From positions 29,965 to 93,964 of the forward strand of contig CANENS010000001.1 in NCBI GenBank assembly GCA_947428935.1: 64,000 nucleotides of DNA, in the 5' to 3' direction. Shown piece by piece: positions 4,474-53,259 of the stretch (position 1 is the stretch's first letter; each line of letters opens with the position of its first letter). The notes below the pieces were generated by a model. The model was not told the origin of the DNA, searched no databases, and worked only from the letters and a program-made list of their open reading frames with translations. The translations under genes were made by a program, and so were the position numbers. Origin of the DNA: an uncultured Candidatus Saccharibacteria bacterium. GTDB taxonomy: Bacteria; Patescibacteriota; Saccharimonadia; Saccharimonadales; Saccharimonadaceae.

Positions 4474-5870
4474 GCGTAAAAAATCAGCAAAGACGAGGTA
4501 AGGAACGTTTGAAATTGGCAAAAAAAGCTGGTTTAGTCGGAGGTTCCTTAGGCGTGGAGGCGAAACGTAGCAAGAACGCTATAGGTGAAAAATCTGAGGC
4601 AATTGACGATTTGGATAGAATATCAAATCAGGAAAAATCGGGTGGGCCGACCGGAAATAAGATTGAAAATGGGGCTGTTTCGGTAGCACGAAAGAAGGCG
4701 AAGGAGGGTCATCCTTCTATTGTAGCACAGATTGACAAAAAAGTCAATACTCCTTACGCTTCTTCGCCTAAAAAGCGCCAAAAAGCCCTAGATGGGGCTA
4801 AAAAAGAGCTCAAAACTGTCCAAAAGAGTTTTAAAAACCCCAAAAATGATACTGGTGATTTAGCTGAGGTTTCGGGCGGCGTGACAGAACGCGAGTGCGC
4901 GTGGGAGCGGATTTTGCAGCTTTATCCGGAGGCGAATTTCTTGCAATCGCCAGAATGGGCGGAGGCAAACCGGGCGATGGGACATCGCCCGGTTTGGGGC
5001 GACCTCGGCGAAAAAGCTTGGTGCTTGATGTTGGTAAAAAACGCGAAAAGGGGTCGGTATTTGGAAGTTCCTGGTGGTCCGTTGCTGGATTGGCAAGATG
5101 AACAGGCGGTGACACGAGCTTTCGCAGCTATTCGCGAGGTCGCCCAGCACGAAAACTGTGTTTTCGTGCGCCTCCGCCCACAATTGACGAAGTCTTCGTC
5201 GCATCAGGCGATTTTTGCGCGTCAAGGCGCAAAAATCGCCCCCATGCATTTACATGCGGAACATACGGTAATTCTTGACTTGATGCAGAGTGAAGAAGAT
5301 TTACTAAAAAAGATGCGTCGACAGACGCGATATGAGGTGCGCCAGGCCGTGAAAAAAGGCGTGCAGGTTGATTGGGGAAATAGTGAAGAGCTATATCGTG
5401 AGTTTCATAATGTGCAGCATGAAACCGCGTTGCGTCAACACTTTGTGCCGCCAAATTTAGTAACTTTGCTGGCTGAGCGTCAGGGTTTTGGTCAGAATGC
5501 TCGGATTTATGTGGCGAGAGATGCGAAAGAACAGCCAATCGCTTATGGTCTGATTTTTTGGTCAGGGAAGGAAGGTGAATATTTTGAGGCGGCATCGACC
5601 GATTTGAATCGAAAATTACCGGGTTCCTATGCTATAATTTGGCAGGCGATGCAAGACTTGAAGGGGTTGGGCTTGGAGCGCTTTAACCTTTGGGGGATTG
5701 CGCCACCGGGAGAGACAAAACACCGCTATTCGGGTGTAACCACTTTCAAGACGGGTTTTGGTGGCGAAGTAGTGGAGTATCTGCCGGCGCAGGATCTGAT
5801 TATCCGGACGGCGCGCTACAAAATTAATCTTTTAGTGGAGAGAGCACGTAAAAGGTGGCGGCATCTGTGA
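4470..5870 (+). CDS. FemABX-family peptidoglycan peptidyltransferase with ~137-aa N-terminal extension
   Basis: FLQSPEW, PGGPLLDW, RRQTRYEVRQA, FNLWGI, FKTGFGG motifs; ATGA coupling to upstream gene. Confidence 0.85.
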   Translation: MSVKNQQRRGKERLKLAKKAGLVGGSLGVEAKRSKNAIGEKSEAIDDLDRISNQEKSGGPTGNKIENGAVSVARKKAKEGHPSIVAQIDKKVNTPYASSPKKRQKALDGAKKELKTVQKSFKNPKNDTGDLAEVSGGVTERECAWERILQLYPEANFLQSPEWAEANRAMGHRPVWGDLGEKAWCLMLVKNAKRGRYLEVPGGPLLDWQDEQAVTRAFAAIREVAQHENCVFVRLRPQLTKSSSHQAIFARQGAKIAPMHLHAEHTVILDLMQSEEDLLKKMRRQTRYEVRQAVKKGVQVDWGNSEELYREFHNVQHETALRQHFVPPNLVTLLAERQGFGQNARIYVARDAKEQPIAYGLIFWSGKEGEYFEAASTDLNRKLPGSYAIIWQAMQDLKGLGLERFNLWGIAPPGETKHRYSGVTTFKTGFGGEVVEYLPAQDLIIRTARYKINLLVERARKRWRHL

Positions 5871-6039: not shown

Positions 6040-6234
6040 TCCGCAGCGGGTGGAATAATATTAATAAGGCTTCTATGAACTCTGCAGGCGCCAATAGTTA
6101 TTTATGGTCGAGTACTGGCACAGATTTAATTGGTGCATACTTTATTCGTTCTGATCAACCAAGGGTTACACTAGCAGATTCGAACTTTCGTCATCTCGCC
6201 TTCTCCCTCCGCTGCCTAGCTAGACTGTAATAAT
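6040..6234 (+). repeat. Orphan DGR-VR-like cassette 1 (intact, type A end)
   Basis: CGCAGCGGG...TGGTCG...CTCCGCTGCCTAGCTAGACTGTAATAAT; encodes RSGWNNIN...WSS...AYF...FSLRCLARL*. Confidence 0.85.
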
Positions 6235-6347: not shown

Positions 6348-6500
6348 TCTATACTTGAGCGGCGGAGAGGGTGGTGGTAAAAGCACATACTACTACGAGA
6401 TAGGTCGAGATTAGAAAGGTCAAGAATTAGATAATAAGCGTAACGGGTGTTGTTTGCGGGTTGAGCGGACCAACTATAAAGTCAAACATAAAATGTTGAA
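6348..6500 (-). repeat. Orphan VR-like cassette 2 (decayed, type B end), convergent with cassette 1
   Basis: Minus strand reads YSWSAQPANNTRYAYYLILDLSNLDLSRSSMCFYHHPLRRSSI; 3' end matches cassette at 28820 at 21 of 24 nt; 5' part has a stop/indels. Confidence 0.7.
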
Positions 6501-7118
6501 ACTATAATGTCTGTGGAAAACTTTGGCGTTGGTGGAAAAGTGGTGGAAAACTTTTGCTCCTGTTGAACAGGGAAGAAGGATTCTACTTGTGGAAAACTCT
6601 GCCAAGAAAGCTTAAAAATATGAAAGAAAATGTCAAAAAACTCTTGTAGTTTTTGGGGAAATTGTTTATACTTAAGTCAGTGGACGAACACCCACACAAA
6701 CAGATAAAATAACTACAAAAATTATCCTAAAATAAAAGAAAATACAAAAATTTAGTGAAATATAAGTAGGTTTTAGCTGCGAGGATTCACCCACTTGGTA
6801 TCGTAAGATTGTAGATTAACAAGGTTTGAGACTGGACAACTAGGAGTTTCGGCGCGCGTTTGGGTTACGCGAAATCTAAGCCAATATGCACCTCGAAAAA
6901 AACACCTCCCAATTAACTCTATAGATTTGCACTTGTGCGAATCTCAACCACTCATTTACACTATAAGTCTCTCAACGGTCGCGTATTGTGATTAGCTTCG
7001 GCTGGTCGGGTCGCGATGGATCTAAAAAGTGTATGATGTTAAATAAACAGCAAAGAAAACAAAACCGCGGAAGTTTCTAGTTGCACGGTCTCAAACAATG
7101 AGTGTATAATATACACAT

Positions 7119-8021
7119 ATGGAAGAACTTCATCAGCCAGTGTTGTTGTCGGAAGTACTCGAAGTTTTGCAGCCGAAGCCGGGCGAGTCGTATTTGGATT
7201 TGACGGCGGGGTATGCGGGGCATGCGAGTGAAGTTTTGGATGTGACACGGAATTATAAGGATGCAGTTTTGGTCGATCGGGATCAAAATGCGGTCGAAGT
7301 ACTTGAGGAGCGGTTTGTGAGTAAGCCGATTCGGATAGTGAAGGCGGATTTTTATGATGCGGTGTTGCAGGAAATTGAGTGTGGAAATACTTTCGACATG
7401 ATATTAATGGATTTTGGAGTTTCTTCTCCGCAGCTAGACAGAGCGGAACGGGGTTTTTCCTTCGCGAAAGATGGTCCGTTGGATATGAGAATGGATCGGA
7501 CGCAAGAGTTGGATGCTGGAGTAATTATCAATAAATGGGGCGAACAGCGTATCGTTAGCATCTTGGAGAAATATGGCGAAGAAAAGTCAGGTTTTGCGAA
7601 AATGATTGCGCGGGAGATTGTGCACGGACGGCCTTGGCAGTCGACGAAGCAGTTGGGGGAGGCTTTGGCGAAGTACGGTGGAGGCGGACGAGTGCACCCG
7701 GCGACGCGGACTTTCCAGGCGATTCGGATCGCGGTGAATAATGAGTTGGAGCTGATTGCTTGGACTTTGCCGCTGGTCTTGAAGGTTTTACGGCCAGGAG
7801 GGCGCGTAGCGGCGATTACTTTTCATAGTCTAGAAGATCGGTTGGTGAAAGATTGGCTGAAAGCCGAGACCACGAAGGGGGAAGAGTCGGAACTCGTGCT
7901 ACTGACGAAAAAACCGATTACTGCGGGAGATCAGGAGTTGTTTATCAACCCGAGAGCGAGAAGCGCGAAACTACGGGCGGCGCGTAAAAGATCGGACGAT
8001 AGTCTGTCGTTCGTGCGGTAG
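7119..8021 (+). CDS. rsmH: 16S rRNA m4C1402 methyltransferase RsmH (MraW)
   Basis: HQPVLL, DLTAGYAGH, DFGVSSPQLD, ITFHSLEDR, NPRARSAKLR. Confidence 0.97.
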   Translation: MEELHQPVLLSEVLEVLQPKPGESYLDLTAGYAGHASEVLDVTRNYKDAVLVDRDQNAVEVLEERFVSKPIRIVKADFYDAVLQEIECGNTFDMILMDFGVSSPQLDRAERGFSFAKDGPLDMRMDRTQELDAGVIINKWGEQRIVSILEKYGEEKSGFAKMIAREIVHGRPWQSTKQLGEALAKYGGGGRVHPATRTFQAIRIAVNNELELIAWTLPLVLKVLRPGGRVAAITFHSLEDRLVKDWLKAETTKGEESELVLLTKKPITAGDQELFINPRARSAKLRAARKRSDDSLSFVR

Positions 8022-9322: not shown

Positions 9323-9433
9323 GTTCGCAGCGGGTATGTCAATTCTCATAATGGACGCCTGGTCGGCACTGGCCTTAACGGTTATGTATGGTCATCACGT
9401 AATAGCGTTAATGCTCACTGTATCTATCGCCTT
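9323..9433 (+). repeat. Orphan VR-like cassette 3 (5' half only)
   Basis: GTTCGCAGCGGGTATGTC start; VRSGYVNSHNGRLVGTGLNGYVWSSRN...IYRL; similarity is lost after ~9433. Confidence 0.8.
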
Positions 9434-11720: not shown

Positions 11721-12749
11721 ATGGAAGATACGCTCAATAATGAGACATTTTATGGATTAATTTTGGCGCTTTCGGCTTTTTTCTTGGCGACCTTTTTGAC
11801 GCCGATTTATACACATTTCGCTTATAAATATAAATTTTGGAAAAAGCAGAAGAAAACCACGGCTACGGGCGATGCCTTGCCGATTATGACAAAACTGCAC
11901 GAGAAGAAGTTTGCGCGAGCTTTTCCGACTATGGCGGGGGTGATTGGGGTGGTGACGGTGGCGATTGTGACCTATGTCTGCAACTGGAACCGAGAGCAAA
12001 CCTGGCTACCGCTGGCGGGGTTTTTGGGCGGGAGTTTGGTAGGATTGATCGATGATTTGATTAATGTTTTTGGTTCGGGTCGGGGCGCAGCGGGACTGCG
12101 TGCACCGGTGAAATTCTTTATGATCTCGGCGATTGGGGTGATTCTGGGCTGGTGGTTTGCGGTGAAATTAGGCTGGACGGCGATCGAAGTGCCGTTTCTG
12201 GGTGATTGGCACGTCGGTACGGTGGGCATGATTCTGATTTTTGCCTTTGCGGTGGTGGCGACTTCGAATGCGGTTAATATCTCGGACGGTCTGGATGGGT
12301 TGGCTGGTGGGTTAGCCATGCTTTCCTATGCGGCTTATGGTGCGATTGCACTGTTTCAGGGACAGTGGATGTTAGCGGGCTTTTGTTTGACGGTGGTGGG
12401 GTGGTTGCTGTCGTATATTTGGTTTAATGTGCCTCCAGCGCGCTTTATGATGGGGGACGTGGGCTCTTTTGCGATTGGCGCTGGACTGGGCGTGGTGGCG
12501 ATGATGACGAATGCCTTTTTCCTCTTGCCGATTATTGGCTTTTTATTTGTGGTTGAAGCAGGATCTTCGCTGTTGCAAATGTTTTGGAAAAAAGTGTTCA
12601 AGAAGAAACTTTTTATCTCGGCGCCGATTCATCATCATTTGGAGGCGACTGGTTGGGGAGAAGCCAAGATTGTCATGCGATTTTGGGTGATTGCAGGAGT
12701 ATTGGCGATTGTGGGCGTGTTTCTGGCGGTACAAGGGGGAATTGTATGA
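11721..12749 (+). CDS. mraY: Phospho-N-acetylmuramoyl-pentapeptide transferase MraY
   Basis: PTMAG, GLIDD, NAVNISDGLDGLA, MGDVGS, APIHHH. Confidence 0.96.
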   Translation: MEDTLNNETFYGLILALSAFFLATFLTPIYTHFAYKYKFWKKQKKTTATGDALPIMTKLHEKKFARAFPTMAGVIGVVTVAIVTYVCNWNREQTWLPLAGFLGGSLVGLIDDLINVFGSGRGAAGLRAPVKFFMISAIGVILGWWFAVKLGWTAIEVPFLGDWHVGTVGMILIFAFAVVATSNAVNISDGLDGLAGGLAMLSYAAYGAIALFQGQWMLAGFCLTVVGWLLSYIWFNVPPARFMMGDVGSFAIGAGLGVVAMMTNAFFLLPIIGFLFVVEAGSSLLQMFWKKVFKKKLFISAPIHHHLEATGWGEAKIVMRFWVIAGVLAIVGVFLAVQGGIV

Positions 12750-13002
12750 TGAGAGGGGGCTTTGTAGCGGTTTTTTTGGCTATTTTTGGAAAGACAAGCT
12801 TTTTGGCGAAAAAGTTTAAGAAAAGCCTTGTAACTCTGAGGGTGGTGAATAAAGATGCGTTTGCGCGATCTTTTGAGCGATGCAGGAGGGACTATTTTGT
12901 TTCCGTAAATTATGCCAAAAATGGGAATTACACATATTTTAAGGCAAAGAGTATTGACTTTTTTGATAACGTGTGCTATAATGGAAGGATAGGGTCCTGA
13001 TA

Positions 13003-15496: not shown

Positions 15497-16060
15497 ATGC
15501 GTGGGCGAAATAATGAATCGAAACGAATGCGTGCTGGTCGTACGATCGTGGCGGAGCGCGAGCGGATTGAATCTGATTCGGAGCGAATGCAGGCTCGTAA
15601 GAAGGTGAAGCGCAAGCATACAACGTTGGTAATCCTGGTGCTGTTGATTTTGGTGGCGATTGGGCTGGCGATTTTCTTAGGCATGAAGGAGCTCTCGAAG
15701 GAATACGTGGTGATTGGCGATGCGAAGGAGAAAAGCGAACCCTATGTAGTACAGGCTATGATTGTCGACGAAGATAATCGTGGGCAGATTTCGATGCGGG
15801 TGAATCAATATATTGGTGAATTAGAGCAAGCGTTTGCGGATTTGGGATATAAAGTGGTAAAAGTAACGCTGCCGACTGGTAAAAGCCGTGAGCTCTATGT
15901 GGATTTAGAGGGTAGAGAAACCTTTTTCAAAGTTAGTATGGAGCGGGGTGCAGCTGTGATAGCTGAAGATGCTGCGAGGATGATTCGTTATCTGGACGGT
16001 CACGATATACACCCGGTTTATGTTGATGTACGAGTAGAGGGAAAGGGGTATTATCAATAG
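15497..16060 (+). CDS. FtsQ/DivIB-like single-pass division protein
   Basis: Basic N-tail, one TM, C-terminal YVDVRVEGKGYY resembles the FtsQ C-terminus; follows murG. Confidence 0.6.
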   Translation: MRGRNNESKRMRAGRTIVAERERIESDSERMQARKKVKRKHTTLVILVLLILVAIGLAIFLGMKELSKEYVVIGDAKEKSEPYVVQAMIVDEDNRGQISMRVNQYIGELEQAFADLGYKVVKVTLPTGKSRELYVDLEGRETFFKVSMERGAAVIAEDAARMIRYLDGHDIHPVYVDVRVEGKGYYQ

Positions 16061-16333
16061 AATTCGGTTTCGGCTCATCACGTTGAAATTTTAATTTCGC
16101 TATTGACTTTTTTGGTAATATGTGCTATAATAAGGGTAGAGGGTGGTTTTTGACGGGCTGATTTTTCTAAACGCTAGTTCTCTGATGAAAACTAGGGAAT
16201 TACGTTCAAAGAAAATGAATAAAAGACTTAGTGATCAGATCAACACAACGAATCATAATGGCTGACTATCGTGCTTGTGTTTGCATATAAATGATGTATG
16301 TAATAATGTGTGTGCTTTTTGGCATTGCTTATA

Positions 16334-16510
16334 ATTATCATTGTTGCCTACGCTCGAGCAGCGGAGGGGAGGAGTTCCAGCGATCGTAGCTGTTGGACGG
16401 GTGGACGCCAGAAGCAGTAAAGACAAGATAGTATGCATAACGAAGACTAGAAGAATTAGCCCGGGACGACCATTCGTAACCGTTGCTACTGATGTAGACG
16501 TACCCGCGAC
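16334..16510 (-). repeat. Orphan VR-like cassette 4 (type B end; 24-nt internal deletion, 2-nt frameshift)
   Basis: Minus strand: GYVYISSNGYEWSSRANSSSLRYAYYLVFTASGVHPSNSYDRWNS, then shifted PLRCSSV. Confidence 0.85.
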
Positions 16511-16621
16511 AGAGCGTTTTTAAGTTCGGTTTTTGTTCGGTTATTTATAATCAAGAGGATGATATGGGGAGCGTTGATCCGTGTGGTGATGGGGTAAAAA
16601 CGCCGATAGCGTTTGTAGGTA

Positions 16622-16812
16622 AGGAACAATGAGGGGAAGCGGTATTAAAGTTAGCAGCAGAGACGTCAATTTTAATCGTAAAAACCGTAAGCGAAGAAAT
16701 GAGTTTATCGGCTGGTACATTTCGCGAGGCCTAGATATAGCGTCGTAAAATCTGTATTGTGCGACGTTAAGATTCCTCCCCATCAACGATTACAAATGTA
16801 TGAACGTATACA
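16622..16812 (-). repeat. Possible heavily decayed VR-like cassette 5
   Basis: TACGTTCATACATTTGTAATCGTTGATGGG aligns to the cassette 5' part; TAT ATC TAG GCC TCG CGA AAT aligns to Y-x-W-S-S-R-N; ends GCTTCCCCTCATTGTTCC. Confidence 0.45.
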
Positions 16813-17060
16813 CTCGGCTAGTACGGGAGCGGGCTTGTCCTCCCGTTCCGAGTTCGCTGTTCCATTCCCCTGTAATAAAGTTCCCAAAAAAGTTGCATTT
16901 CCTGGAATTGACCCGAACAGTATCGAGGCTCTAGAGAACGGAGCGCCCTATTCGATCTTGTCCGAAACTGGTAACGCTCGGAAAAATAACAATAGGTTAT
17001 CTATGAATATTAAATCCATAAAAAGAAAGGAAAAGCATGGATATTAAAGAGTTATGATCT

Positions 17061-20000
17061 TTAATTTTGCGGATTTTGCTCGTGTAGAGATATTTCGGCA
17101 TTGTCTGACAATTCCCGTGGCGGTTCGGAGTAGATTTGCGGATCATTATTATAATAGCTCGAATCCGGTGAATTGGGGTATGGATAGACTTGTGGTTGCG
17201 ATTGATAGTCACCATAGACGTTTTGAGCTTGCTGGTAATACTGTGCTGAGGGATCCTGAAGGTTATTTGAGGTATTATAATACTGGTCGTTATTATAATA
17301 TGCGTTGTTGTCGTAATAAGTGCTTTGCTCATAACCTTGAGTGTAGCTTTCGGGAACAGCTTGTGGGTGATTCTGGAGGAAGTTTTCGGCGCTTAAGGCG
17401 ACCTTGCCGGTTGCAACAAGGCGTGGGTTAGCCACTTGACCGACGAAGCGCGCGGCGGCATTTTGGGCCGCTTGCAGTTGCTGTATACTGGCTCCACTAG
17501 GCTTAGGCTGGGTATGATTGAACTTTTGGCCTAAGTCTTCTTCGTCGGTCTGTATGGACAAAGATACCTTTGCTTGAGCCGTATTGTTGCTGAGCGGATT
17601 TTTTGCCTTTGACGTTTTTTCTAGTTTGCTGCCCTTCTTTTCTCGTTCCTTTTTGACTTTATCTTTAACTTTATCTTTGGGTTTCTGGTCATTAAGGGTG
17701 GATTTTTCGTTATTTTTAGGGTTTTTGGGCGTTTTTTGGACTGGAGTGGGGTCATGGGAAGGTTTTTCATCGCGAGTTCTCTGAGCCGCTTTCTGGGGCT
17801 CCACATGGGTATTCCTAGGAGTGTTAATTGGTTTTTTCGCTAACGGCTGCTTTGGCTGCGTCTTTTCGGGCGTTGTGGGTTCTCCAGACGGCTTTTCTGT
17901 GGTTGTAGGCTTCTGGCCGGGCGTAACGGCTGGTGTATTTTCGGCAGCTTTAGGAGCGGGTTCTGGTGTCTTCTTGGCCTGCTTTTGTGCCACCAAATTC
18001 CCTAAATCCTTGAGACCGAGGCGGTTTTTACCCTCAGCGGCGTTAGGAGAGAGTTTCATTTTGCGGAAATCAGTCTGAGGCGTAGTGGGCACGAATTTAT
18101 AGTTCGGTTTTTGTTCGGTTTTATTCCCTATTGAAGGGGAACTGGTAGTAGTGCTCTGTTCGCCGGCGTTGCGACCGCTATCGGAGAGTTCTTTTTTGTA
18201 TTTTTCTGATTGCTCGATGGTTTCGCGGATTTCGGCTTCAATCTCGGACCGGGGGCGGGCAAAATTAGCGCGAGAATACTCGACGATTTTATCAAAATTG
18301 TCTTGCGGCGTCTCTGGAATTGAGAGGGTAGTGGCGGAGAAGGCCGGGGCTTTTTCGCCGTTAATGATCATAGAAATGACGAAATGACGGTTGTTAAGTT
18401 GAATCAAGTCGCTTTGGTCAAAAATCGGCTCGAACTGTTTTGATAAAATTGGTGCATCATCGGCGGAGACACGAAAACTGATGGTGGTACCGACGTTACC
18501 AAAGACGGCGTCGCGTACCGAATCAGTCATTTGCGACGTATATTGGTTGGCCACTGTGAGATTCAGTCCATATTTACGAGCCTCTGAGAGAATGACGGCG
18601 AAACTATCGGTGGCAAAGTTCTGGAACTCGTCTACATAGAGGTAAAATGGCCGCCGATCGCTAACTTCGGCGATGTCGGAGCGTGACATGGCAGCGAGCT
18701 GAACTTTGGTGATGATGAAAGCGCCGAGGATAGCGGCGTTGTCTTCACCAATTAAGCCTTTGGAAAGATTAACTACTAGGATTTTCCCTTCGTCCATGAT
18801 TTTGCGGATATCGAAGCTAGATTTGGGTTGACCGATAATGTTGCGAATGATTGGGTTGGCCGTGAAGGCGCCGACCTTGTTAAGCACTGGCGCGATGCTT
18901 TCGTTGACTTGTTTTTCATTCCATTGGCCAAATTCGTGTTTCCAGAACTGGAGCACGGTGACATCTTGGCAATAATCAAGCGTTTCTTTGCGAAAGTCTT
19001 TGTCGGTTAGGAGCCGGGAAACGTCAAGTAAGGTGGTCTCTGGGCGGTCTAAGAGTGCCAGGAGAGTGTACCGTAAAATATGCTCGAGACGTGGACCCCA
19101 AGAATCGCCGAACATACGCTTCAAAACGCCGATCACTTCTGAACAGACATTGGGTTTGCGGGCCGGATCAGAAAGCTCAAGTGGGTTGAAGGCAACTGGG
19201 TAATTGACATCGGCAGGGTTGAAGTAAACTACGTCTTCAATTCGGCCTTCTGGCACGAAGCGCAAATTGTCGATTGCAAAATCGCCATGTGGGTCAACGA
19301 TACAATAACCCTGGTCGTGAAAAGTATCACTCAGCGCAAAAAGTTCTAGCATGCCGCTTTTACCAGCGCCGGTTTGCCCAATAATATAGACGTGGCGTGA
19401 ACGATCACGGCGATAAAGCCCAAACTGATGATTGATGCCACGAAAATTAGTTAAGCCGAAGGCCGAGATGGCATCGTCGTTGGCGGGGTCGCCGGTAATT
19501 AACGGCAGCTTAGCTGGCGGCTCGGCGGTTTTGGAGGAAGCCCAGACGATATTAGGTGTTTCCACGGAAGTATGTGGCAGGTGATAAACCGAAGCGAGCT
19601 CGGAAATATTGAGAATAAAACCGCGTTCGGCGAAATGACGCAATTTATAATGGTCCAGGGCGTCGGCATCGAAGCTACCTTTGGTTAGTTTGAAGCCGTT
19701 CAGGCTGGTTGAATTGTATTGCTTAAAAGTGCCGACTAGTGCTTGCATATTGAGTTTAGCGTTGGTTTGGTCGTTGCCGAGGTAAGCCAGGCGGATTTTG
19801 ACTTCGTAGCCGAGTTTGGCGGCTTTTTCTTCGGCTTTAGCGATGCGTGTTTTGTCGAGTTCGGAAAGTTCGGGCTTGGCTTCGTCTTCACTACCGCCGG
19901 TCGGAGGCCGAAAAAGCGCGCCCAAGGCTTCTACTAACCAAGACCAATCCAGACCCAGAAAAATCGACTTCCCTCTTCCCTCTTTGACTCTTTTGATGTA

Positions 20001-20621
20001 GTGGTCGGTGGAGTTTTTGCGCCAATCGTCCGGCACGGGGCGAGTGAGGATTTGGATCCAAAGCTCTTCCGAATTGTCGGGATTGAGCTTGGCCAAGGTG
20101 CCAGTAATGCCAGCCAAGGGGTCGACTTCGAAATTCTCGAAAGTTTTGATCGGCAAGGCTTCATTCTCGACTAGGCTGAGCTCCGTAGTATAAGTGACCG
20201 AATATTTTTCGCGATCATCGACGTAATCTTCGTCAATGCGGTATATTTGTACAGTGGGATATTGGGCGTAAATTTGCCCTTCTACGAAACTTTGCAGAAT
20301 TTTTGGTACCCAGACGTAGAAGCGAATTTGGCCACCGGTAGAAACAATCTCGAATGAAAGATGCTCTTGGATGCCGTCGGAATTCTTCAGCTCGCTCTTG
20401 TCGCGTAGGATACCGTGTAAACTAGCAAAAAGCTGCTCGGCAGCCAATTCCTTTTTATCGTTGGCGCGCGGGATTTCTAGCATCAAGAGCACTGAATCGA
20501 CATTAAGAATCTTGAGTCGATTGTTTTTCTTATAATTACGATAAGTCAGGAAAGCCAAAAATGCGACTAACGGCACCCAGAAAATAGGCTGCGAGATAAA
20601 ATGAATGATCTTTGTCAACAT
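17061..20621 (-). CDS. VirB4/VirD4-like (TraG-D/HerA-FtsK superfamily) ATPase with N-terminal TM and low-complexity tail
   Basis: Walker A GQTGAGKS, DPHGD, Walker B LYVDEFQNF, EARKYGLNLTVANQ. Confidence 0.85.
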   Translation of the reverse strand: MLTKIIHFISQPIFWVPLVAFLAFLTYRNYKKNNRLKILNVDSVLLMLEIPRANDKKELAAEQLFASLHGILRDKSELKNSDGIQEHLSFEIVSTGGQIRFYVWVPKILQSFVEGQIYAQYPTVQIYRIDEDYVDDREKYSVTYTTELSLVENEALPIKTFENFEVDPLAGITGTLAKLNPDNSEELWIQILTRPVPDDWRKNSTDHYIKRVKEGRGKSIFLGLDWSWLVEALGALFRPPTGGSEDEAKPELSELDKTRIAKAEEKAAKLGYEVKIRLAYLGNDQTNAKLNMQALVGTFKQYNSTSLNGFKLTKGSFDADALDHYKLRHFAERGFILNISELASVYHLPHTSVETPNIVWASSKTAEPPAKLPLITGDPANDDAISAFGLTNFRGINHQFGLYRRDRSRHVYIIGQTGAGKSGMLELFALSDTFHDQGYCIVDPHGDFAIDNLRFVPEGRIEDVVYFNPADVNYPVAFNPLELSDPARKPNVCSEVIGVLKRMFGDSWGPRLEHILRYTLLALLDRPETTLLDVSRLLTDKDFRKETLDYCQDVTVLQFWKHEFGQWNEKQVNESIAPVLNKVGAFTANPIIRNIIGQPKSSFDIRKIMDEGKILVVNLSKGLIGEDNAAILGAFIITKVQLAAMSRSDIAEVSDRRPFYLYVDEFQNFATDSFAVILSEARKYGLNLTVANQYTSQMTDSVRDAVFGNVGTTISFRVSADDAPILSKQFEPIFDQSDLIQLNNRHFVISMIINGEKAPAFSATTLSIPETPQDNFDKIVEYSRANFARPRSEIEAEIRETIEQSEKYKKELSDSGRNAGEQSTTTSSPSIGNKTEQKPNYKFVPTTPQTDFRKMKLSPNAAEGKNRLGLKDLGNLVAQKQAKKTPEPAPKAAENTPAVTPGQKPTTTEKPSGEPTTPEKTQPKQPLAKKPINTPRNTHVEPQKAAQRTRDEKPSHDPTPVQKTPKNPKNNEKSTLNDQKPKDKVKDKVKKEREKKGSKLEKTSKAKNPLSNNTAQAKVSLSIQTDEEDLGQKFNHTQPKPSGASIQQLQAAQNAAARFVGQVANPRLVATGKVALSAENFLQNHPQAVPESYTQGYEQSTYYDNNAYYNNDQYYNTSNNLQDPSAQYYQQAQNVYGDYQSQPQVYPYPNSPDSSYYNNDPQIYSEPPRELSDNAEISLHEQNPQN

Positions 20622-25437: not shown

Positions 25438-25622
25438 TTCTACCTTCCTTTCCGTAACATTTTAAGGTACTTATACTTCAATTATAGCACACTTTGTTCA
25501 AAAAGTCAATAGTTTTTTGATGAATTAGCTTAAATTACGGGATTGCAAGATTGATAATAAGGTCGAGGTTTGTAGCGAGAACCTTGAAAAAGGCCGACTT
25601 TCGCAGTCGACCTTTGGAAAAA

Positions 25623-26229: not shown

Positions 26230-26336
26230 ATTATAGAACACATTGTCTAAAAATCAAGGTTTTGTATAAATAATTTGTTCAATTTTAGGTATATTTGTGA
26301 AAATTGTTGTAAAATCAACAATAAAAGCCTTGACAA
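26230..26336. promoter_or_regulatory. Divergent promoter module copy A
   Basis: Leftward -10/-35, AATTTGTTCAATTTT box, TTGTTG..CAACAA inverted repeat, rightward TTGACA; 4 copies in the window. Confidence 0.7.
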
Positions 26337-26391
26337 AGGCCAACTTGTCGAAAAAAACTGGCCTGCCCTAGAGGGGCAGGCCAGAATCGTC

Positions 26392-27192: not shown

Positions 27193-27394
27193 ATTATTAC
27201 AGTCTAGCTAGGCAGCGGAGGGGGAAGGCGTCCCAGCGATTATCGTTGTTAGACGGGTAGATGCCAGACGCATCGAAGGCGAGGTAGTATGCAGAACGAA
27301 CACCAGAAGAATTAGCTAGGGACGACCATCCGTAGCCGCTGATGCCAGAGACCCTCAAACGACCGTAATTAATATTGACGTACCCGCTGCGAAC
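27193..27394 (-). repeat. Orphan DGR-VR-like cassette 6 (intact, type A end)
   Basis: VRSGYVNINYGRLRVSGISGYGWSSLANSSGVRSAYYLAFDASGIYPSNNDNRWDAFPLRCLARL*; no start codon or RBS. Confidence 0.9.
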
Positions 27395-27802: not shown

Positions 27803-27830
27803 ATAAGCATTATAGCACACGGAGTATTAT

Positions 27831-28727
27831 ATGTCAACACTTTTTTCACACTTTTTTTCAAAAAACAACGAAATTCGACCCCAAAAGGCTGATTTTACAG
27901 AGGTGTTGAGCACTATTGCGGTTATGCCTAAAATGTTGTATTTTTACGGAAAAATGCCCCAAAATCGGCCAAAATCGGTCGCGATTGTGGGCACCAGAAA
28001 GCCTACTAAATATGGCTCGGAAATCGCTTATGATTTGGCCTATAAAGCCGCTAAACGTGGCGCGGTGGTGATCTCGGGACTCGCTTATGGTATTGACTCG
28101 ATTGCGCATCGCGGAGCTTTGGCGGCGGGTGGGGTAACGGTGGCAGTGCTGGGAACGCCGATTGACCAAATTTATCCGCGCGAGCACGAAGGTTTGGCGC
28201 AGGAGATCGTCGAAAAAGGCGGTATGGTGATGAGTGAATTGCCTCGAGGAGCGAAATATTATGCAAAAACTTGCTTTTTGCAGCGGAATCGGCTGATTTC
28301 GGGTTTGGCGGACGTGGTGGTGATCGTGGAGGCGGCGGAACGAAGTGGTTCGCTCAACACTGCGATGCATGCGTTGGAACAGGGGCGAGAGCTTTTTGCG
28401 GTGCCGGGCGATATTACAAGGGTGAATTCCAGAGGTTGTAATCGCCTGTTGGCTCAGGGCGCTGGGATTTATACTGAGCCAGAAGATGTGTTGGACTTGC
28501 TTTTTCCGCCGACTGAGGTGGCTCAGAGAGAGCAAAAGCGGCTGCTTTTTGGCGATAATTCGGGAGAAACTGCGATTTTGCGGGCGATTGCGGCCGGCGA
28601 GCGTGATGGCGAAAAACTGGCTGAAGCGGCACGGATGGAAGCAAGAATTTTTAATCAGAACATAACTATGCTAGAAATCAAGGGGCGAGTACGGGCTTTG
28701 GGTGCTAATCGTTGGTGTTTAGCATAA
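27831..28727 (+). CDS. dprA: DNA-processing protein DprA
   Basis: VAIVGTRKPT, ISGLAYGID, AVLGTPID, RNRLISGL, SGSLNTA; C-terminal winged helix. Confidence 0.95.
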   Translation: MSTLFSHFFSKNNEIRPQKADFTEVLSTIAVMPKMLYFYGKMPQNRPKSVAIVGTRKPTKYGSEIAYDLAYKAAKRGAVVISGLAYGIDSIAHRGALAAGGVTVAVLGTPIDQIYPREHEGLAQEIVEKGGMVMSELPRGAKYYAKTCFLQRNRLISGLADVVVIVEAAERSGSLNTAMHALEQGRELFAVPGDITRVNSRGCNRLLAQGAGIYTEPEDVLDLLFPPTEVAQREQKRLLFGDNSGETAILRAIAAGERDGEKLAEAARMEARIFNQNITMLEIKGRVRALGANRWCLA

Positions 28728-33078: not shown

Positions 33079-33951
33079 ATGGCAAGAGAAAAACGGAATG
33101 ATTGCAGTGCAGATTTTGAGGGGACGGTCACAGTGGGCGATTGGTTGGCTTGGGCGAAGAAACAGATCGATAGCCTGGAAGCGGAAATTATTGCGACACA
33201 TCTTTTTTCTGTGGATGCGGAGCCGGTGGATCGGAGTTGGTTGGTGGCGCATAGCCAAGATAGTGTTGACCTAGCGCTTTGGCGGACAGGTAAAGAATGT
33301 GTGATTGAGCGCAAAATGGGGGTGCCGATTGCTTATGTGGTGATGAGTAAGGAATTTTATGGCCGCAGCTTTAGCGTGACGCCGGAGGTCTTGATTCCCC
33401 GCCCGGAAACGGAGGTATTGATTGATTTGGTGAAGGACTTGCCGCTTTCTCCTTCGGTTCGTATTCTGGAAGTTGGTACTGGTAGTGGTTGTATTGCAGT
33501 AACTTTGGCTTTGGAGTTCCCCCAGGCGACCGTTGTGGCGACGGACGTGGATGAGGAGGCTTTGGAAATAGCTAAGGAGAACGATCGTGAGTACGAAGGA
33601 CGAATTTTTTTTGTGGAGACAGATTTGTTGGATGGGATTAACGATCAGTTTGATGTGGTGGTGGCGAATTTGCCATACGTCGATGCGGTTTGGCCCTGGC
33701 TCGATCTCAAAGCTTTGAGTTACGAACCATATCAGGCGCTTTTCGCCCAAGACAAAGGCTTGGCGCTGTATAAAAAGTTGATGCAACAGATGTCGGAGAA
33801 GGGCTTGTCGAGATATTTGGTCATCGAGGCTGATCCGTGTCAACAGGATGAGCTAGTCGGATATGCGAAAAAATGCGGATTCGAGCTTTTGAAAGCCCAG
33901 GATTATGGTTTAATTTTTGTGTCTACGCAGAAAATGCGAAAAGGCTCTTGA
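33079..33951 (+). CDS. prmC: Release factor glutamine methyltransferase PrmC/HemK
   Basis: VLIPRPETE, EVGTGSGCI, NLPY; follows prfA. Confidence 0.93.
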   Translation: MAREKRNDCSADFEGTVTVGDWLAWAKKQIDSLEAEIIATHLFSVDAEPVDRSWLVAHSQDSVDLALWRTGKECVIERKMGVPIAYVVMSKEFYGRSFSVTPEVLIPRPETEVLIDLVKDLPLSPSVRILEVGTGSGCIAVTLALEFPQATVVATDVDEEALEIAKENDREYEGRIFFVETDLLDGINDQFDVVVANLPYVDAVWPWLDLKALSYEPYQALFAQDKGLALYKKLMQQMSEKGLSRYLVIEADPCQQDELVGYAKKCGFELLKAQDYGLIFVSTQKMRKGS

Positions 33952-33995
33952 CAAATTTGATAATGTGTGCTACAATGGGAGTAGATACTGTTGAG

Positions 33996-38110: not shown

Positions 38111-38217
38111 TTATAGCATGCTTTGCTTAAAAAGTCAATAGATTGAACACTAAATTTGTTCAATTTTGGTGGTTTTTGTGGGTTTTGTTGTAATTTTAAC
38201 AACAAAACTCTTGACAA
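38110..38217. promoter_or_regulatory. Divergent promoter module copy B
   Basis: Same boxes as 26230, 42115 and 52839; a cassette starts 14 bp after TTGACA. Confidence 0.75.
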
Positions 38218-38230
38218 GCGGCAGTATGAT

Positions 38231-38428
38231 TTTCACAACGGGTTCGTTAATATTCGTAGCGGTCGTTTGGGGTTCTCTAGCAGTAATGGTTACGGTTGGT
38301 TGTCATGGTCTTATACTGATATTTATTCTGCGTCATACCTTGGTCTCTATGCATCTGGCGTCTACTCGTCTGGTGGCAGTAGTCGCTGGGCCGGTTGTCC
38401 TCTCCGCTGCCTAGCTAGATAGTGATGA
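38231..38428 (+). repeat. Orphan DGR-VR-like cassette 8 (intact, type A end)
   Basis: HNGFVNIRSGRLGFSSSNGYGWLSWSYTDIYSASYLGLYASGVYSSGGSSRWAGCPLRCLAR*. Confidence 0.85.
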
Positions 38429-39231: not shown

Positions 39232-40680
39232 CTAATTCGTTCGATTTCGAGAGCTATCTTGATCTTGGTCGTTGCGGAAAGAAAAGCAGATTGGCGTACC
39301 GACGAAGGGATATTTTTCGCGAATTTTGCGCTCCAAGAAGCGTTTGTATGACCAGTGTAATAGCCCGAGATCGCGGCCATGGATGACGAACCAGGGCGGG
39401 CAAATATCGGTTTGGACCATATATTTCAGCTTGGGTCGAGTGTTCTTAAGTCCGGCGGGCGGATGTTCGATAATCGCTTCGCCGAGAATTTTATTTAGCT
39501 CAGAAGTTTTGATTTCTTGATGCCGAGTCTGGTCGATCTCCAGCGCTAGCTCGAATAGTTTGGTGACGTTTTTGCCGGTTTCGCTACTAGTGAGTAGCAC
39601 GGGAGCATAAGGCAAAAAGTTGAAATCGCGCTCTAAGTCATCCAGAATTTCGTCAATAGGCTTAATATCGGGATTAATTAAATCGGTCTTCGTCACAATG
39701 ACTACGATGCCTTTTCCGGCTTTTATGATCTGTCCGGCAAGGGTTTGGTCGAGCTTTGAGTGCGGTTCGGTGGCGTCGACCAGCAGTGCGCAAATATCGG
39801 CTTCTTCGATCGCGGCTAGCGTGCGCAGCGCAGAGAATTTTTCGATGCCGACTTCACGCTTGCCGGAACGGCGCAGGCCGGCGGTGTCGAGAATTTCGAG
39901 CGTACGGCCATGAAAACGCACTTCGGCACGGTTAACGTCGCGCGTAGTCCCCTGACGTGAGCTAACCAGGGCCTGCTGCTTTTTACCAAGAGTATTGAAA
40001 AGGCTCGATTTACCTACGTTGGGTCGACCAATCAAGGCGAGTCTTAACGGCTCCGTAATAGACTTGTCTTTTTCGTGATTTTCCGCGTCAGAATCTGCGC
40101 GCGCGGTTCGCTTCTGCGTTTCAAGACTTCCTTGAAGTTCATCGAAAAATACCGCGTTTTGCGTTTGCTGCTGATGGCTCAGATTTTTAAGGCCTAAATT
40201 CTGATAGATGGCGTTTTTCAGTTCTTTGATTCCCTGCCCCGTGGTGGCCGAAGTGCGAAAAGTCTCGCTGGGTTTGATACCAAAGCGCAAAAACTCTTCG
40301 CTAGGCAAGCTCTCGCCAAGATCGGATTTATTGAGTAAAAGCAAAACTGGTTTTTTGGATTTTAAGGCTTTTTTGGCGATTTCGCGATCTTTGTCGTTTG
40401 GATATTTCGAGGAGTCGACCGTGATCAAGATCAAGTCGGCGCTATTAATTGCGTCGGCAATTTGGTCTTGGATATTAGCTTCGAAATCATCGGTTGGGTT
40501 CTTGAGCCCAGCGGTGTCGATTAGTAAAAAACGATTATCGATACGGGCCATAACGTTGTCGCGCGTGGTCCCCTCTTCGCGTGCTACGATTGCGATATTT
40601 TTGCGCGCAAAGCGATTCAGCAGGCTGGATTTGCCGGCATTAGTTTGGCCAATCAAAGCTACGATGGGAAGTTTTTTCAT
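39232..40680 (-). CDS. der: Ribosome biogenesis GTPase Der (EngA)
   Basis: Two GTPase domains (GQTNAGKSSL, GRPNVGKSSL, DTAG) plus a KH-like C-terminus. Confidence 0.95.
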   Translation of the reverse strand: MKKLPIVALIGQTNAGKSSLLNRFARKNIAIVAREEGTTRDNVMARIDNRFLLIDTAGLKNPTDDFEANIQDQIADAINSADLILITVDSSKYPNDKDREIAKKALKSKKPVLLLLNKSDLGESLPSEEFLRFGIKPSETFRTSATTGQGIKELKNAIYQNLGLKNLSHQQQTQNAVFFDELQGSLETQKRTARADSDAENHEKDKSITEPLRLALIGRPNVGKSSLFNTLGKKQQALVSSRQGTTRDVNRAEVRFHGRTLEILDTAGLRRSGKREVGIEKFSALRTLAAIEEADICALLVDATEPHSKLDQTLAGQIIKAGKGIVVIVTKTDLINPDIKPIDEILDDLERDFNFLPYAPVLLTSSETGKNVTKLFELALEIDQTRHQEIKTSELNKILGEAIIEHPPAGLKNTRPKLKYMVQTDICPPWFVIHGRDLGLLHWSYKRFLERKIREKYPFVGTPICFSFRNDQDQDSSRNRTN

Positions 40681-40765
40681 GCTATAATTATAACATAATC
40701 CTCTCTTTTTTATAAATAATGATGTACGAATTTTTATACAATAAGGCTTATGTGCTATAATGGAA

Positions 40766-40916
40766 GTGCCTTATTCTATTCAAATATCATTTACGTTAAA
40801 AATGATTAGCTTTTAGCATCTTTTTCCCGATGCACTTGAGCGGCATCGCATAAGTAATCATCGGGAAGCGTAAATGGTTATGAATGGAATTAAGGCACCT
40901 TGCGGTGTCGCTTTTT
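40766..40916 (+). ncRNA. Candidate structured RNA (6S-like rod or attenuator leader) with terminator
   Basis: Nested stems GTGCCTTA/TAAGGCAC, ATTTACG/CGTAAAT and TTCCCGATG/CATCGGGAA after TGTGCTATAAT, then a hairpin plus T5. Confidence 0.55.
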
Positions 40917-40967
40917 GTATAAAAGGGTGCACAAGGTTAGATATTAAAACAATAGAGGAGAATATCT

Positions 40968-42014
40968 ATGTCAAAACATAAAAAAATACTAGCTCTGGGC
41001 CTAGTAGCTTTATGCCTAGCTTTTGCTGCTAGTGCGACCACAACAAATTCACAAACATATGCCTCCGACGCCGCACAGAGCGCCACTTATCAATCGGCGA
41101 TTGATTCGATTGCGGATTATAATAAAGTTGATGCGCTCAGTGCGGCGATAGCTGCTACGCAAAAACAGATCCCAGAAGCTATCATTTATTGGGATATGAA
41201 ATATGCTGTAGACGAGATTAAGGGCCATACTTGCGGTACGATGGACTTGCGTGGAGCATGGAATATTGGCTGTGGCGCCAGTGTTTCTCGCAATTTGCTT
41301 TATCGTTTAGCCTTGGCGGATGGCGCAATTGATGAGGCAAACTTCGATATCGGCTCAGAGTTCCCCGCGCCGTACAAAGACTATACTATGCGCGAGACGA
41401 TTACGCTGCTGAAGGGTAAATCCGTATATAATGACGATGCTGAGCTTAAAAAGTTTGTGGACGCAGCGGAGGCTATGTATAATCGTGGCGTCGACACTCT
41501 TCGCGCGGACCTGAAAAAAGTCGACCCGAGCTTAACGGATCTAGATTCGAAAAATGGCGATCAGCTAATCGAGACTTACCAGAATTTGCCCGCCGTCAAA
41601 GCGGGAACTTATACGGATTTTGTTGAAGCCTACTCCCGAGCCTATTCGTTCGATAACTATGTTAAATATTTGGGCGGTGAAGAAGCGGCTAGGGCTGAGT
41701 TTGTTAATCTTGATGAAGACGCAACGAAGCTCTACGGTAATTTAGTCGCTGAAGCTGTTAAAATCAAGCCGGATTTTACAGTTGATCTTTCCGGCGTTAA
41801 ACGGTTGAATCAAGAGGACGCTTCGCAAATTTCTGCAGAACTTCCACAGTCATCGGCGCCAGGTGCTCCTGATACGGGCGGGCTCGGTAGTGAAAATGGT
41901 TCGGCCAATATCGTAACGGTGGCGTTTTTAGGAATTGCGGTGACGGCTAGTGTTGGCGGAATAATTTATGTCGCAAAGCGCTATCTCTTTAGTCCACTTA
42001 AACGACGCAAATAG
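40968..42014 (+). CDS. Secreted protein with sortase-type anchor (APDTG-TM-KRRK)
   Basis: Signal peptide ending AFA; C-terminal APDTG, hydrophobic helix and basic tail; GAGGAG RBS. Confidence 0.8.
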   Translation: MSKHKKILALGLVALCLAFAASATTTNSQTYASDAAQSATYQSAIDSIADYNKVDALSAAIAATQKQIPEAIIYWDMKYAVDEIKGHTCGTMDLRGAWNIGCGASVSRNLLYRLALADGAIDEANFDIGSEFPAPYKDYTMRETITLLKGKSVYNDDAELKKFVDAAEAMYNRGVDTLRADLKKVDPSLTDLDSKNGDQLIETYQNLPAVKAGTYTDFVEAYSRAYSFDNYVKYLGGEEAARAEFVNLDEDATKLYGNLVAEAVKIKPDFTVDLSGVKRLNQEDASQISAELPQSSAPGAPDTGGLGSENGSANIVTVAFLGIAVTASVGGIIYVAKRYLFSPLKRRK

Positions 42015-42043
42015 AAAAGCGAGATAACCGATTTAATTTGCCT

Positions 42044-42066
42044 GCAGGGCCCCATAGGGGCCCTGT
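42044..42066. terminator. GC-rich hairpin CAGGGCCCC-atag-GGGGCCCTG
   Basis: Perfect stem just downstream of ORF 40968-42014. Confidence 0.65.
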
Positions 42067-42114
42067 TGTGTAGTCTGCCTGGTTTTGAAAGGTTTATCTT
42101 TGCCCTATCCCCCC

Positions 42115-42223
42115 ATTATAGCACACATCGTCAAAAAAGTCAAGATTTTGTATAAATAATTTGTTCAGTTTTGAGGACTTTTACGGGTCTTGTTGTATTT
42201 TTTAACAACAAAACCCTTGACAA
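42115..42223. promoter_or_regulatory. Divergent promoter module copy C
   Basis: Same boxes as the other copies; a cassette starts 28 bp after TTGACA. Confidence 0.75.
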
Positions 42224-42250
42224 GTATAACCATAAGGCTGCATGAAACGC

Positions 42251-42452
42251 GTTCGCAGCGGGTTTGTTGATGTTAGTAATGGCTACTTCAGGCGGTCTGG
42301 CCTTGATGGTAGCCAATGGTCATCTCGCACTGACCCTTCTAGTGATCGCTATGCGTATTATTTCTACTATGGCATATCAGATCTTAATCCATCAAATACC
42401 TATGTTCGCTACTACACCTTCCCCCTCCGCTGCCTAGCTAGACAGTAATAAT
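42251..42452 (+). repeat. Orphan DGR-VR-like cassette 9 (intact, type A end)
   Basis: VRSGFVDVSNGYFRRSGLDGSQWSSRTDPSSDRYAYYFYYGISDLNPSNTYVRYYTFPLRCLARQ*; in-frame ATG at 42242 but no RBS. Confidence 0.9.
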
Positions 42453-42464
42453 GTATAAGAAAAT

Positions 42465-46283: not shown

Positions 46284-46690
46284 ACCTGGGAAAATTAATT
46301 GTAATGACTGCTGATGCCTATCCCTGTATAATTAGTATACTTTCGCATTAAAGAAGCATGCTCACGTTTTAGAAAAGTATACTTTTGTAATAGAAAAATA
46401 TACTAAAATATATTTTTGTAATTTATCTCTGGGAAAATAGGGTTTTTACTCTCAAAAATAAGTTTACCCAAAATATAATCAAGTTTATTCCCGGTATAGA
46501 AAAGTATGCTTAGACTATAATGGAGTTTGCTCGATGTCTAAAAAATTTAGTTTTGCATTAGTAGGATGTACATCTGTAATATAAAGAAAGTCTATACGAA
46601 ATATGTTGACAAGGTTTTTTGGCGCAGTGAGTGCCCATTAAAATATGGCTTAAATGGTGAAAATACGTTAGGGGTTTTCGCTAGACTATT

Positions 46691-47974: not shown

Positions 47975-48148
47975 ATTGTACTCCACTTTAGTTTTTACTA
48001 TTATAACATACGCAATTTTGCGAAGCAATTTTACGGTTAAGCGTATTAAGAGATTTTGGGGTGCTTTTGCTGGATATTATGCGACCTTGATTGCGGTGCG
48101 TAGTATCCGAAAAGGGAGTAGATTTTATTGTGTCATACGACGCTTAGT

Positions 48149-48350
48149 TTTCGCAGCGGCAATGTTAATGTCGATAGAGGCTTATTAAGGAACATTGCTT
48201 ATTTTGGCTATGAATGGTCGTCACAAACTACTGTACTCGACGATGGTCCTGTTTATAGCCTTGGTTTTAATAAGTCAGATGTCTTTCCGTCCGATAGCCA
48301 TGATCGTTGGATTGCTTCCCCCCTCCGCTGCCTAGCTAGACAGTAATAAT
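48149..48350 (+). repeat. Orphan DGR-VR-like cassette 10 (intact, type A end)
   Basis: FRSGNVNVDRGLLRNIAYFGYEWSSQTTVLDDGPVYSLGFNKSDVFPSDSHDRWIASPLRCLARQ*. Confidence 0.9.
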
Positions 48351-52700: not shown

Positions 52701-52838
52701 CGTGTTTTTGCTTGCTACTATTATAACTGCAAGCGCGTTCGAAAAGCAAGGGGCTTTTCGATTGATTTGCCGCGCAGGCTGTGGAAAACTTTAGTTTGTT
52801 TTTTTGAAAAGAAAGTTTTATTTCGACCCTATCTTCTC

Positions 52839-52946: not shown

Positions 52947-52968
52947 GCGTAAATTTGGTGCTTTATGT

Positions 52969-53057: not shown

Positions 53058-53259
53058 ATTATTACTGTCTAGCTAGACAGCGGAGGGGGAAGCTGAAGTA
53101 GCGATTGCTGTTGTCGGACGGGTTGACGCCAGACGCATTGAAGGCGAGGTTGTATGCGCTATTAATATTAGATGAAATAGTTCTCGATGACCATCCGTAA
53201 CCGCCGATGCCAGAGGCCCACAAACGACCGCTATTGATATGGACGTACCCGCTGCGAAC
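53058..53259 (-). repeat. Orphan DGR-VR-like cassette 12 (intact, type A end, most AAY-rich)
   Basis: VRSGYVHINSGRLWASGIGGYGWSSRTISSNINSAYNLAFNASGVNPSDNSNRYFSFPLRCLARQ*; ~80% nt identity to cassette 6 by hand count. Confidence 0.92.

Follow-up and report, generated by a model that had tools for sequence, protein, structure and literature searches.

The described systems closest to the repeat studied here are the diversity-generating retroelements (DGRs), for which we took as comparison the mtd/TR/brt system of Bordetella phage BPP-1 and the Patescibacteria-restricted DGR clade 2 (Roux et al. 2021, PMC8144416). According to surveys (PMC11661182), a DGR element has between one and a few recipient copies. 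A hairpin downstream of the recipient copy has been described (Guo et al. 2011, PMC3240598), and one lineage of relatives of our locus shares this feature. The repeat also resembles those of DGRs in being a C-terminal unit of a lectin-like fold, about 180 nt long, with a GC-rich, adenine-free 3′ end that resembles the site for initiation of mutagenic homing (IMH). Loci of its relatives include an Asn-codon-rich template copy, a reverse transcriptase (RT) with the motif IGNLTSQ, and variation confined to the first two bases of template AAY codons. Unlike DGRs, however, the window (the whole 64-kb stretch of DNA analysed here) holds neither an RT nor a template copy, and its copies lie outside genes. 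There are nine copies in 64 kb, and by depth on the order of 100 per genome, many more than in the surveyed DGRs. They are also far more diverged than active DGR recipients, and the template-type copies of related loci, unlike those of DGRs, do not lie beside an RT.

Silent donor cassettes for antigenic variation are known from Neisseria pilS, the Anaplasma msp2 pseudogenes and Borrelia vls. Our copies resemble such donors in that they are truncated and promoter-less, with conserved ends and hypervariable middles, and are dispersed or in arrays. They differ in that no expression site or conversion event was seen here, and in that the variable codons are NNY, a mark of adenine mutagenesis. Shufflons and other multiple-inversion systems, such as R64 pilV with Rci and its sfx sites, provide another parallel. 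Here too, alternative C-terminal segments follow a conserved start, and related loci show head-to-head or alternating orientation. Unlike in R64, there is no Rci-type recombinase and no inverted state, and the cassettes extend over 47 kb among housekeeping genes.

The window is an ordinary stretch of a small-genome chromosome, with the cassettes scattered among housekeeping genes. The identified genes encode a Mur ligase, FemAB, an FtsI-type PBP, MraY, FtsW, MurG, a VirD4-like protein, topoisomerase I, DprA, Pth, RF1, PrmC, HtrA, signal peptidase, Der, GluRS, enolase and TilS. The gene at 7119-8021 we take to be RsmH from its position and sequence. No recombinase, transposase or expression locus was found among the identified genes of the 64 kb. 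A motif scan of the window revealed no open reading frame combining (I/L)GxxxSQ with YxDD, and tblastn with the RT of the related locus L010 also found none. No template-type copy, with its GGTGCCGATC element, was present in the window. Rfam searches of the window and ten related loci returned tRNAs and rRNA only. DNA of the window occurs in mouse-gut and other gut metagenomes. Its gene content and this source suggest a Saccharibacteria-like member of the Patescibacteria. Scans of species-representative genomes by protein pattern and exact DNA gave no match, nor did a scan of viral contigs. Metatranscriptome contigs, at thin coverage, indicated transcription only of a neighbouring gene and of some family member elsewhere. 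We also noted that the region 15497-20621 encodes a 1186-residue VirD4/TraG-like coupling protein adjoining a small protein with a weak CagC-type pilin match, so that genes of a type IV secretion-like kind lie beside the cell-wall synthesis cluster. Samples X13-X15 match the window at 95-99% elsewhere but lack the region 39300-44400, or carry it with more than 10% divergence; the Der GTPase gene and the cassette at 42252 are part of this region.

A DNA profile search revealed nine copies of the cassette and one weak, decayed trace in the window. Cassette 1 (6041..6234) is the most diverged of the window copies. The features are as follows.

6041..6234, forward strand: cassette 1, an orphan variable-repeat-type unit encoding LLRSG...FSLRCLARL*; stop-to-stop frame of 66 codons
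6043..6049, forward strand: 5′ arm GCAGCGG of cassette 1, codon bases cGC AGC GGg (Arg-Ser-Gly); core of the 5′ block TTCGCAGCGGG
6209..6215, forward strand: 3′ arm CCGCTGC of cassette 1, codon bases ctC CGC TGC (Leu-Arg-Cys); core of the adenine-free, GC-rich 3′ block
6216..6234, forward strand: conserved tail CTAGCTAG ACTG TAATAAT (palindrome, last codons, stop), common to the CTAGCTAG-type copies
6348..6478, reverse strand: weak, decayed cassette remnant, convergent with cassette 1; E about 0.03 with the DNA profile and 3.6e-5 with the protein profile
9324..9433, forward strand: partial cassette; the 5′ half, including its arm, is present, and what follows is unrelated
16337..16538, reverse strand: cassette carrying an internal deletion close to its 5′ end and frameshifted at the 3′ end; CTCGAG-type tail
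27193..27394, reverse strand: intact orphan cassette, VRSGYVNINYGRL...FPLRCLARL*, perfect arms; no in-frame upstream start codon
28836..29017, reverse strand: intact orphan cassette, perfect arms, CTCGAG tail; terminator-like hairpin 8 nt upstream
38232..38422, forward strand: cassette with a degenerate 5′ arm (ACAACGG) and intact 3′ arm; adjoins a 110-nt intergenic repeat module
42252..42452, forward strand: intact orphan cassette, perfect arms; adjoins the same 110-nt module as the cassette at 38232
48150..48350, forward strand: intact orphan cassette, perfect arms; identical in six public samples
53058..53259, reverse strand: intact orphan cassette with one 3′-arm mismatch, a synonymous TGT Cys codon (CCGCTGT)

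The unit spans about 180 bases, and its frame ends ...CTC CGC TGC CTA GCT AGA CAG TAA. The encoded peptide, (F/V)RSG...GYxWSS...AYxL.F...PS...R...FPLRCLAR(Q/L), corresponds to FVRSG...WSS...FPLRCLAR, the C-terminal ~62 residues of a Fib_succ_major/Lcl_C lectin-like domain. Alone, the cassette peptides had no Pfam or NCBIfam match. A profile of these peptides matched 7196 representative proteins, and the aligned stretch in the long ones fell on positions 127-187 of PF09603 (Fib_succ_major) and on the C-terminal end of PF07603 (Lcl_C). Since the long relatives match at the domain ends, the cassette represents a fragment, the C-terminal third, of the lectin-like domain. The close relatives in a large protein collection were all short (65-115 residues), and their N-termini were mutually unrelated. 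The stop-to-stop frames in the window ranged from 66 to 108 codons, with unrelated upstream sequences and mostly no in-frame start codon, and in the window the cassette does not lie at the C-terminus of a complete lectin-fold target protein.

A sequence-only reading of this DNA had described a 7-bp inverted repeat bracketing the cassette, perfect in cassettes 1, 6, 7, 9 and 10 and followed by a short palindrome. This description was borne out. The 5′ arm GCAGCGG and its reverse complement CCGCTGC, the 3′ arm, are present at 6043-6049 and 6209-6215. Including this pair (6043/6215), we counted five perfect arm pairs, 173-179 nt apart, the others lying at 27212/27390, 28836/29014, 42255/42433 and 48153/48331. 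Directly 3′ of the 3′ arm, the palindrome was CTAGCTAG in six window copies and CTCGAG in two. The arm 7-mer occurred 28 times on both strands of the window, compared with 8.2 ± 2.7 times in shuffled sequences, and none of 100 shuffles reached 28. The homology among window copies started at TTCGCAGCGG, within which the conserved 5′ block is TTCGCAGCGGG, and ended at ...CCTTCCCCCTCCGCTGCCTAGCTAGACAGTAATAAT; the 3′ block, CCTTCCCCCTCCGCTGCC, was adenine-free in these copies. When copies were compared, conservation set in 4-7 nt 5′ of the 5′ arm, and in the template-type copies described below it stopped at or just past CCGCTG (at CCGCTG or CCGCTGCCT). Copy boundaries therefore cluster at the arms, as that reading had expected.

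The third positions of the arm codons were nearly invariant in 30 copies chosen without the pattern, whereas 44% of copy pairs differed at the other framework third positions. The bases adjacent to the arms (TTCGT-, -(T)CCCCCT and -CT) were conserved as strongly as the arms and were not mutually complementary. The equal fixation of these adjacent bases shows that the arms belong to two longer fixed blocks, of which they make up half. Composition-preserving shuffles produced a 7-nt reverse-complement match between the conserved blocks in 1.9% of cases, and the arms were complementary in 0.2% of draws when the residues RSG and LRC and the codon usage of the window were given. Since the copies share ancestry, this complementarity counts as a single event, seen after the fact. 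The arms had also been suspected to be a by-product of the RSG and LRC codons. This could not be upheld, because the full-length homologue L012 writes the RC codons as AGG TGT, CGG TGT and AGA TGT and lacks the 7-mers. L012 thus encodes the same residues by other codons, implying that codon usage alone does not yield the 7-mers. The two ends of the unit are genuinely marked by the arms.

That the window copies belong to a DGR-type system may be judged from their relatives. The NCBI assembly contig L010 encodes a 394-residue RT with IGNLTSQ and YVDD, and an Asn-codon-rich copy of the unit, FVRSGNVNINNGKLRNSGINGYGWSS...NVNPSNNNNRWNGFPLRCL, lies 230 nt downstream of it. This copy and a second one 9 kb away were similar exactly from TTTGTGCGCAGCGG to CCGCTGCCTG, with 22 of their 41 mismatches at template adenines (p = 8e-6). 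The remaining 19 mismatches fell off template adenines, indicating that the recipient copy is old. A close homologue of the L010 RT occupies the same chromosomal position in L134-L137. The RT is identical in L134, L136 and L137, and identity among these loci is 99.8% over 12.7 kb. Their differences are confined to a gene-less cassette 340 nt downstream of the RT, with none outside the unit, and the mismatches at codon positions 1, 2 and 3 numbered 15, 12 and 0; 15, 9 and 0; and 16, 12 and 0. By its codon pattern, this reads as the signature of adenine mutagenesis of AAY codons on an orphan copy, and a gene-less copy in these relatives is, to judge from the strains compared, still being rewritten. 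A complete target of 606 residues, with the unit C-terminal, is further encoded in L134, and in the L134 lineage a hairpin lies ~55 nt downstream of the recipient copy. In L135 and L011 the target is shortened to 172 codons and is still variable at the same sites. At a second RT locus, P0199, no cassette was found. Thus, the unit is a DGR-type repeat in the relatives, and the earlier proposal of a stem that defines a unit copied by RT was right as to the kind of unit; the stem itself gained no support from the 30 unbiased copies, which revealed no compensatory changes in a test of little power.

As a separate observation, the orphan copy beside the RT of L134 and the C-terminal repeat of the target (L134:11492-11800 and 12692-13000) were 100% identical over 309 nt in inverted orientation. 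The two repeats differ from each other in other strains. The identity may reflect either recent conversion or assembly collapse.

The variation among copies was examined with codon classes set by an independent reference, the L010 template. In 139 distinct copies among the matches listed, codons with a template adenine at position 1 or 2 differed at rates of 0.58, 0.50 and 0.53 by codon position, and framework codons at 0.25, 0.20 and 0.44. The hypervariable codons of the window were mostly NNY (TAC, GGC, GAT, AGC and others) and located at AAY positions of the L010 template. The window copies were 51-79% identical to one another. They differed at all codon positions and in all four bases, framework included, with pairwise difference counts about equal over the three codon positions. 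Given this divergence, they are not fresh products of one template. One window copy serving as the template of another was likewise rejected, since the mismatches involve all four bases and no pair differed at adenines only. The copy at 48150 was identical in four metagenome samples and two Logan assemblies, with SNPs in the flanks. Sample X3, by contrast, carried at the locus 27193-27394 a cassette with about 36 differences in 200 nt, as reckoned from the listed differences, and with flanks differing by 1-2% on either side; in the same sample, a cassette nearly identical to that of the window lay in another context. We conclude that the window copies are recipient-type units from which the remainder of the gene was lost or was always missing. 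Since the 64 kb contain neither an RT nor a template and at least one copy did not change across samples, most of them are probably old and currently unwritten.

An exact-pattern scan of metagenome contigs yielded at least 120 loci, and with the other loci 143 distinct full-length copies were available. Among the matches listed, the distance from the Arg codon to the upstream stop in these 143 copies had a median of 16 codons, and only 2 of the 143 lay in frames with more than 105 upstream codons. Full-length genes made up roughly 1-2% of family members among the matches listed. A few copies retained more of the parent domain (ICPKGW... and NNYNIA(A/S)PPL(S/Y)F), from which it follows that at least some copies are gene remnants. 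Eighteen copies among the matches listed were of template type, being Asn-rich and followed by a conserved element, GCCGCGGYGGGTGCCGATCTTT. This element was also found behind the L010 template (L010:17390-17425) and at 17 other loci including L112, L106 and L048, and was absent from the window. It is a handy marker of template copies and can pair with the CCGC of the 3′ arm. An RT beside the template-type copies of the metagenome loci was sought and rejected, the neighbours being housekeeping genes. Template-type and neighbouring copies in these loci were 57-69% identical, with a weak adenine bias (pooled odds ratio 1.9 over 11 pairs). This degree of identity and the modest bias imply that most orphans are not fresh products.

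In related loci, 34 of 43 close cassette pairs were head-to-head, with a spacing mode of 118-138 nt, and arrays alternated in orientation. Examples are L092:11961-12095, L111:703-823 and L005:9867-9997, and about 20 other related loci show the same arrangement. The spacer contains two strong hairpins of lineage-specific sequence on either side of a conserved AACAGGGGTAG, without a match in Rfam. The partners were tested as template/recipient pairs, and this was rejected. The window has no head-to-head pair of this kind and no shared hairpin behind the 3′ block. Hairpins were not enriched beside cassettes, where upstream and downstream folds equalled controls.

Pairing of the arms in the sense template RNA or at the cDNA ends would create a stem that defines the unit or presents it to the RT; alternatively, the arms could offer the same inverted site to one nicking or recognition factor. 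We consider this unlikely. The arms are indeed the terminal conserved bases of the unit, common to template-type and recipient-type copies, and their complementarity is improbable from codon choice alone (0.002). In the 30 unbiased copies, 99% of the cells for the seven arm pairs held standard pairs if G.U was allowed. However, none of the seven pairs changed on both sides, two never varied, and the values equalled those of shuffles, so the covariation that had been suggested as a check was not seen, in a test whose power is low since compensation would need non-synonymous changes. The 12 one-sided variants (CGC>CGT, AGC>AGT, TGC>TGT and one AGC>GGC) all keep G.U pairing in sense RNA. They are either synonymous C>T changes or A>G, as coding constraint alone predicts, because every available synonymous transition is C>T opposite G. 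In the cDNA strand the same variants become A.C mismatches. The adjacent, equally conserved bases are unable to pair. The minimum-energy fold contained the arm helix in three of seven copies (6041, 28836 and 48150), with a pair probability of 0.94-1.0; the other four lacked it in the predicted fold, with probabilities of 0.3-0.6 in two and about 0 in two. In template-type copies, moreover, the GCGG of the downstream element, 15-22 nt away, lies closer and could pair with the CCGC of the 3′ arm, although this pairing showed no covariation either.

A role of the arms as recombination sites had been proposed as well, with breakpoints expected at GCAGCGG. We found no cassette inverted between the arms; the flank order was the same in all 143 distinct copies among the matches listed. 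Candidate joints at the arms from contig mapping were explained by cross-mapping of other copies. Two Logan contigs, 99.6% identical to the window over 46362-48339, diverged exactly after the CTAGCTAG of copy 48150 and ran on into the Gabija-like gene pair described below, and two JGI contigs were 100% identical over 10.6 kb and then unrelated exactly from the end of a cassette's 3′ block. Both strain breakpoints thus sit after the 3′ block and neither at the 5′ arm. They could be real rearrangements or insertions or, in the JGI case, a mis-join at the repeat. Overall, the 7-bp repeat is a landmark of the unit's ends, and there is no evidence that the arms pair or recombine.

We regard it as rather probable that each arm forms the core of one of two fixed end blocks, which delimit a DGR-type unit and act as homology or recognition anchors, and that the complementarity of the arms is probably incidental. 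In the relatives, the DGR RT reverse-transcribes RNA of the Asn-rich template copy, and the adenine-mutagenised cDNA replaces recipient copies. Variation among copies is therefore limited to positions 1 and 2 of template AAY codons. The end blocks are adenine-poor and would escape mutagenesis, and they might be kept base for base because replacement requires, at either end, an unchanging stretch for homology or recognition. The 3′ block would then take the role of an IMH site, and the 5′ block that of the upstream homology limit.

The copies might instead form a silent library of alternative C-terminal segments from which an expressed Fib_succ_major gene is supplied through gene conversion or site-specific inversion, recombination taking place at the end blocks. 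Gene-less copies with conserved ends and variable middles, dispersed on both strands, would suit such a library, as would the framework codons, which change more at the third position than at others, and the scarcity of full-length genes among the matches listed (roughly 1-2% of family members). The differing cassette at 27193-27394 in X3, with the window-like copy in another context, and the prevalence of head-to-head pairs (34/43) and alternating arrays in related loci point in the same direction. The two strain comparisons that break exactly at the end of a 3′ block also fit, but such junction differences at a high-copy repeat are possibly assembly artefacts, and no breakpoint fell at the 5′ block, the place at which the exchange of a C-terminal segment would be expected to start. 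Near-identical strains vary point-wise at codon positions 1 and 2 rather than by whole segments, the NNY codons point to adenine mutagenesis, and the window holds no recombinase or expression locus. A silent library is, in our judgement, improbable. Even less can be said for a miniature mobile element, bounded by terminal inverted repeats of 7 bp and propagated by a transposase, which we think very improbable. Its inverted termini, intergenic location on both strands and high copy number, with a depth excess of hundreds-fold at the 3′ block where contigs break, are as expected of such an element. The copies, however, are 51-79% identical, with intact frames and codon-structured variation, and some retain upstream parts of the parent domain. 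No target-site duplications were visible in the flanks, the window has no transposase, and 7 bp is very short for a terminal repeat.

The number of orphan units is more unusual than the arm repeat itself. The 3′ block had a depth hundreds-fold over single copy, contigs broke there, and 150-180 contigs per run touched it. Estimated from this depth and from nine copies per 64 kb, the data suggest on the order of 100 cassettes per genome, a figure to which other strains may contribute. The targets described for DGRs are a single complete gene or a few of them, whereas here many gene-less units are found in a very small genome, and we found no description of orphan cassettes of this kind in the literature searched. 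If the situation is general, retrohoming needs no intact target gene, surveys of DGRs overlook most recipient sites when they discard short targets, and the repeats may shape genome rearrangement in the group. A wider picture, offered with considerable doubt, is that the small-genome bacteria of this group keep, and perhaps generate, ~100 gene-less DGR recipient units per genome, that one factor recognises both identical inverted termini, and that the 3′ ends are hot spots of inserted islands between strains. Were retrohoming indifferent to whether the unit is in a gene, units could persist after gene decay or be seeded by cDNA.

Some repeated elements in the neighbourhood of the cassettes were also noted. 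A strong promoter-like module (TTGAC, 17 nt, TGTGCTATAAT) recurs near-identically in the window at the following sites.

310-367: promoter-like module, site 1
4707-4764: promoter-like module, site 2
12952-12995: promoter-like module, site 3
16101-16144: promoter-like module, site 4
25469-25526: promoter-like module, site 5
27808-27849: promoter-like module, site 6
33946-33989: promoter-like module, site 7
42103-42160: promoter-like module, site 8
52838-52879: promoter-like module, site 9
55098-55155: promoter-like module, site 10

The module at 16101-16144 aims into the antisense strand of the cassette at 16337-16538, a strand without a gene there, and the one at 27849-27808 aims toward the cassette at 27394-27193. 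The 110-nt intergenic module, located at 26230-26339, 38111-38220, 42116-42225 and 52840-52949, consists of a promoter-like module, a TTGTTGTA...TAACAACAA hairpin and a TTGACAAG box, and touches two cassettes, those at 38232 and 42252, directly at their 5′ ends. Cassette 1 and the gene at 7119-8021 are separated by 870 nt that contain no gene. An 85-nt segment of this gap (6513-6597) holds GTGGAAAA(C/G) four times on the same strand, and these copies resemble DnaA boxes or another repeated binding site. At the position 48339/48340, past the CTAGCTAG of copy 48150, the window continues with GluRS, while a sister strain (L001:1979-5577), 99.6% identical up to this point, carries a Gabija-like pair directly behind it, consisting of an OLD/TOPRIM ATPase and a UvrD helicase.
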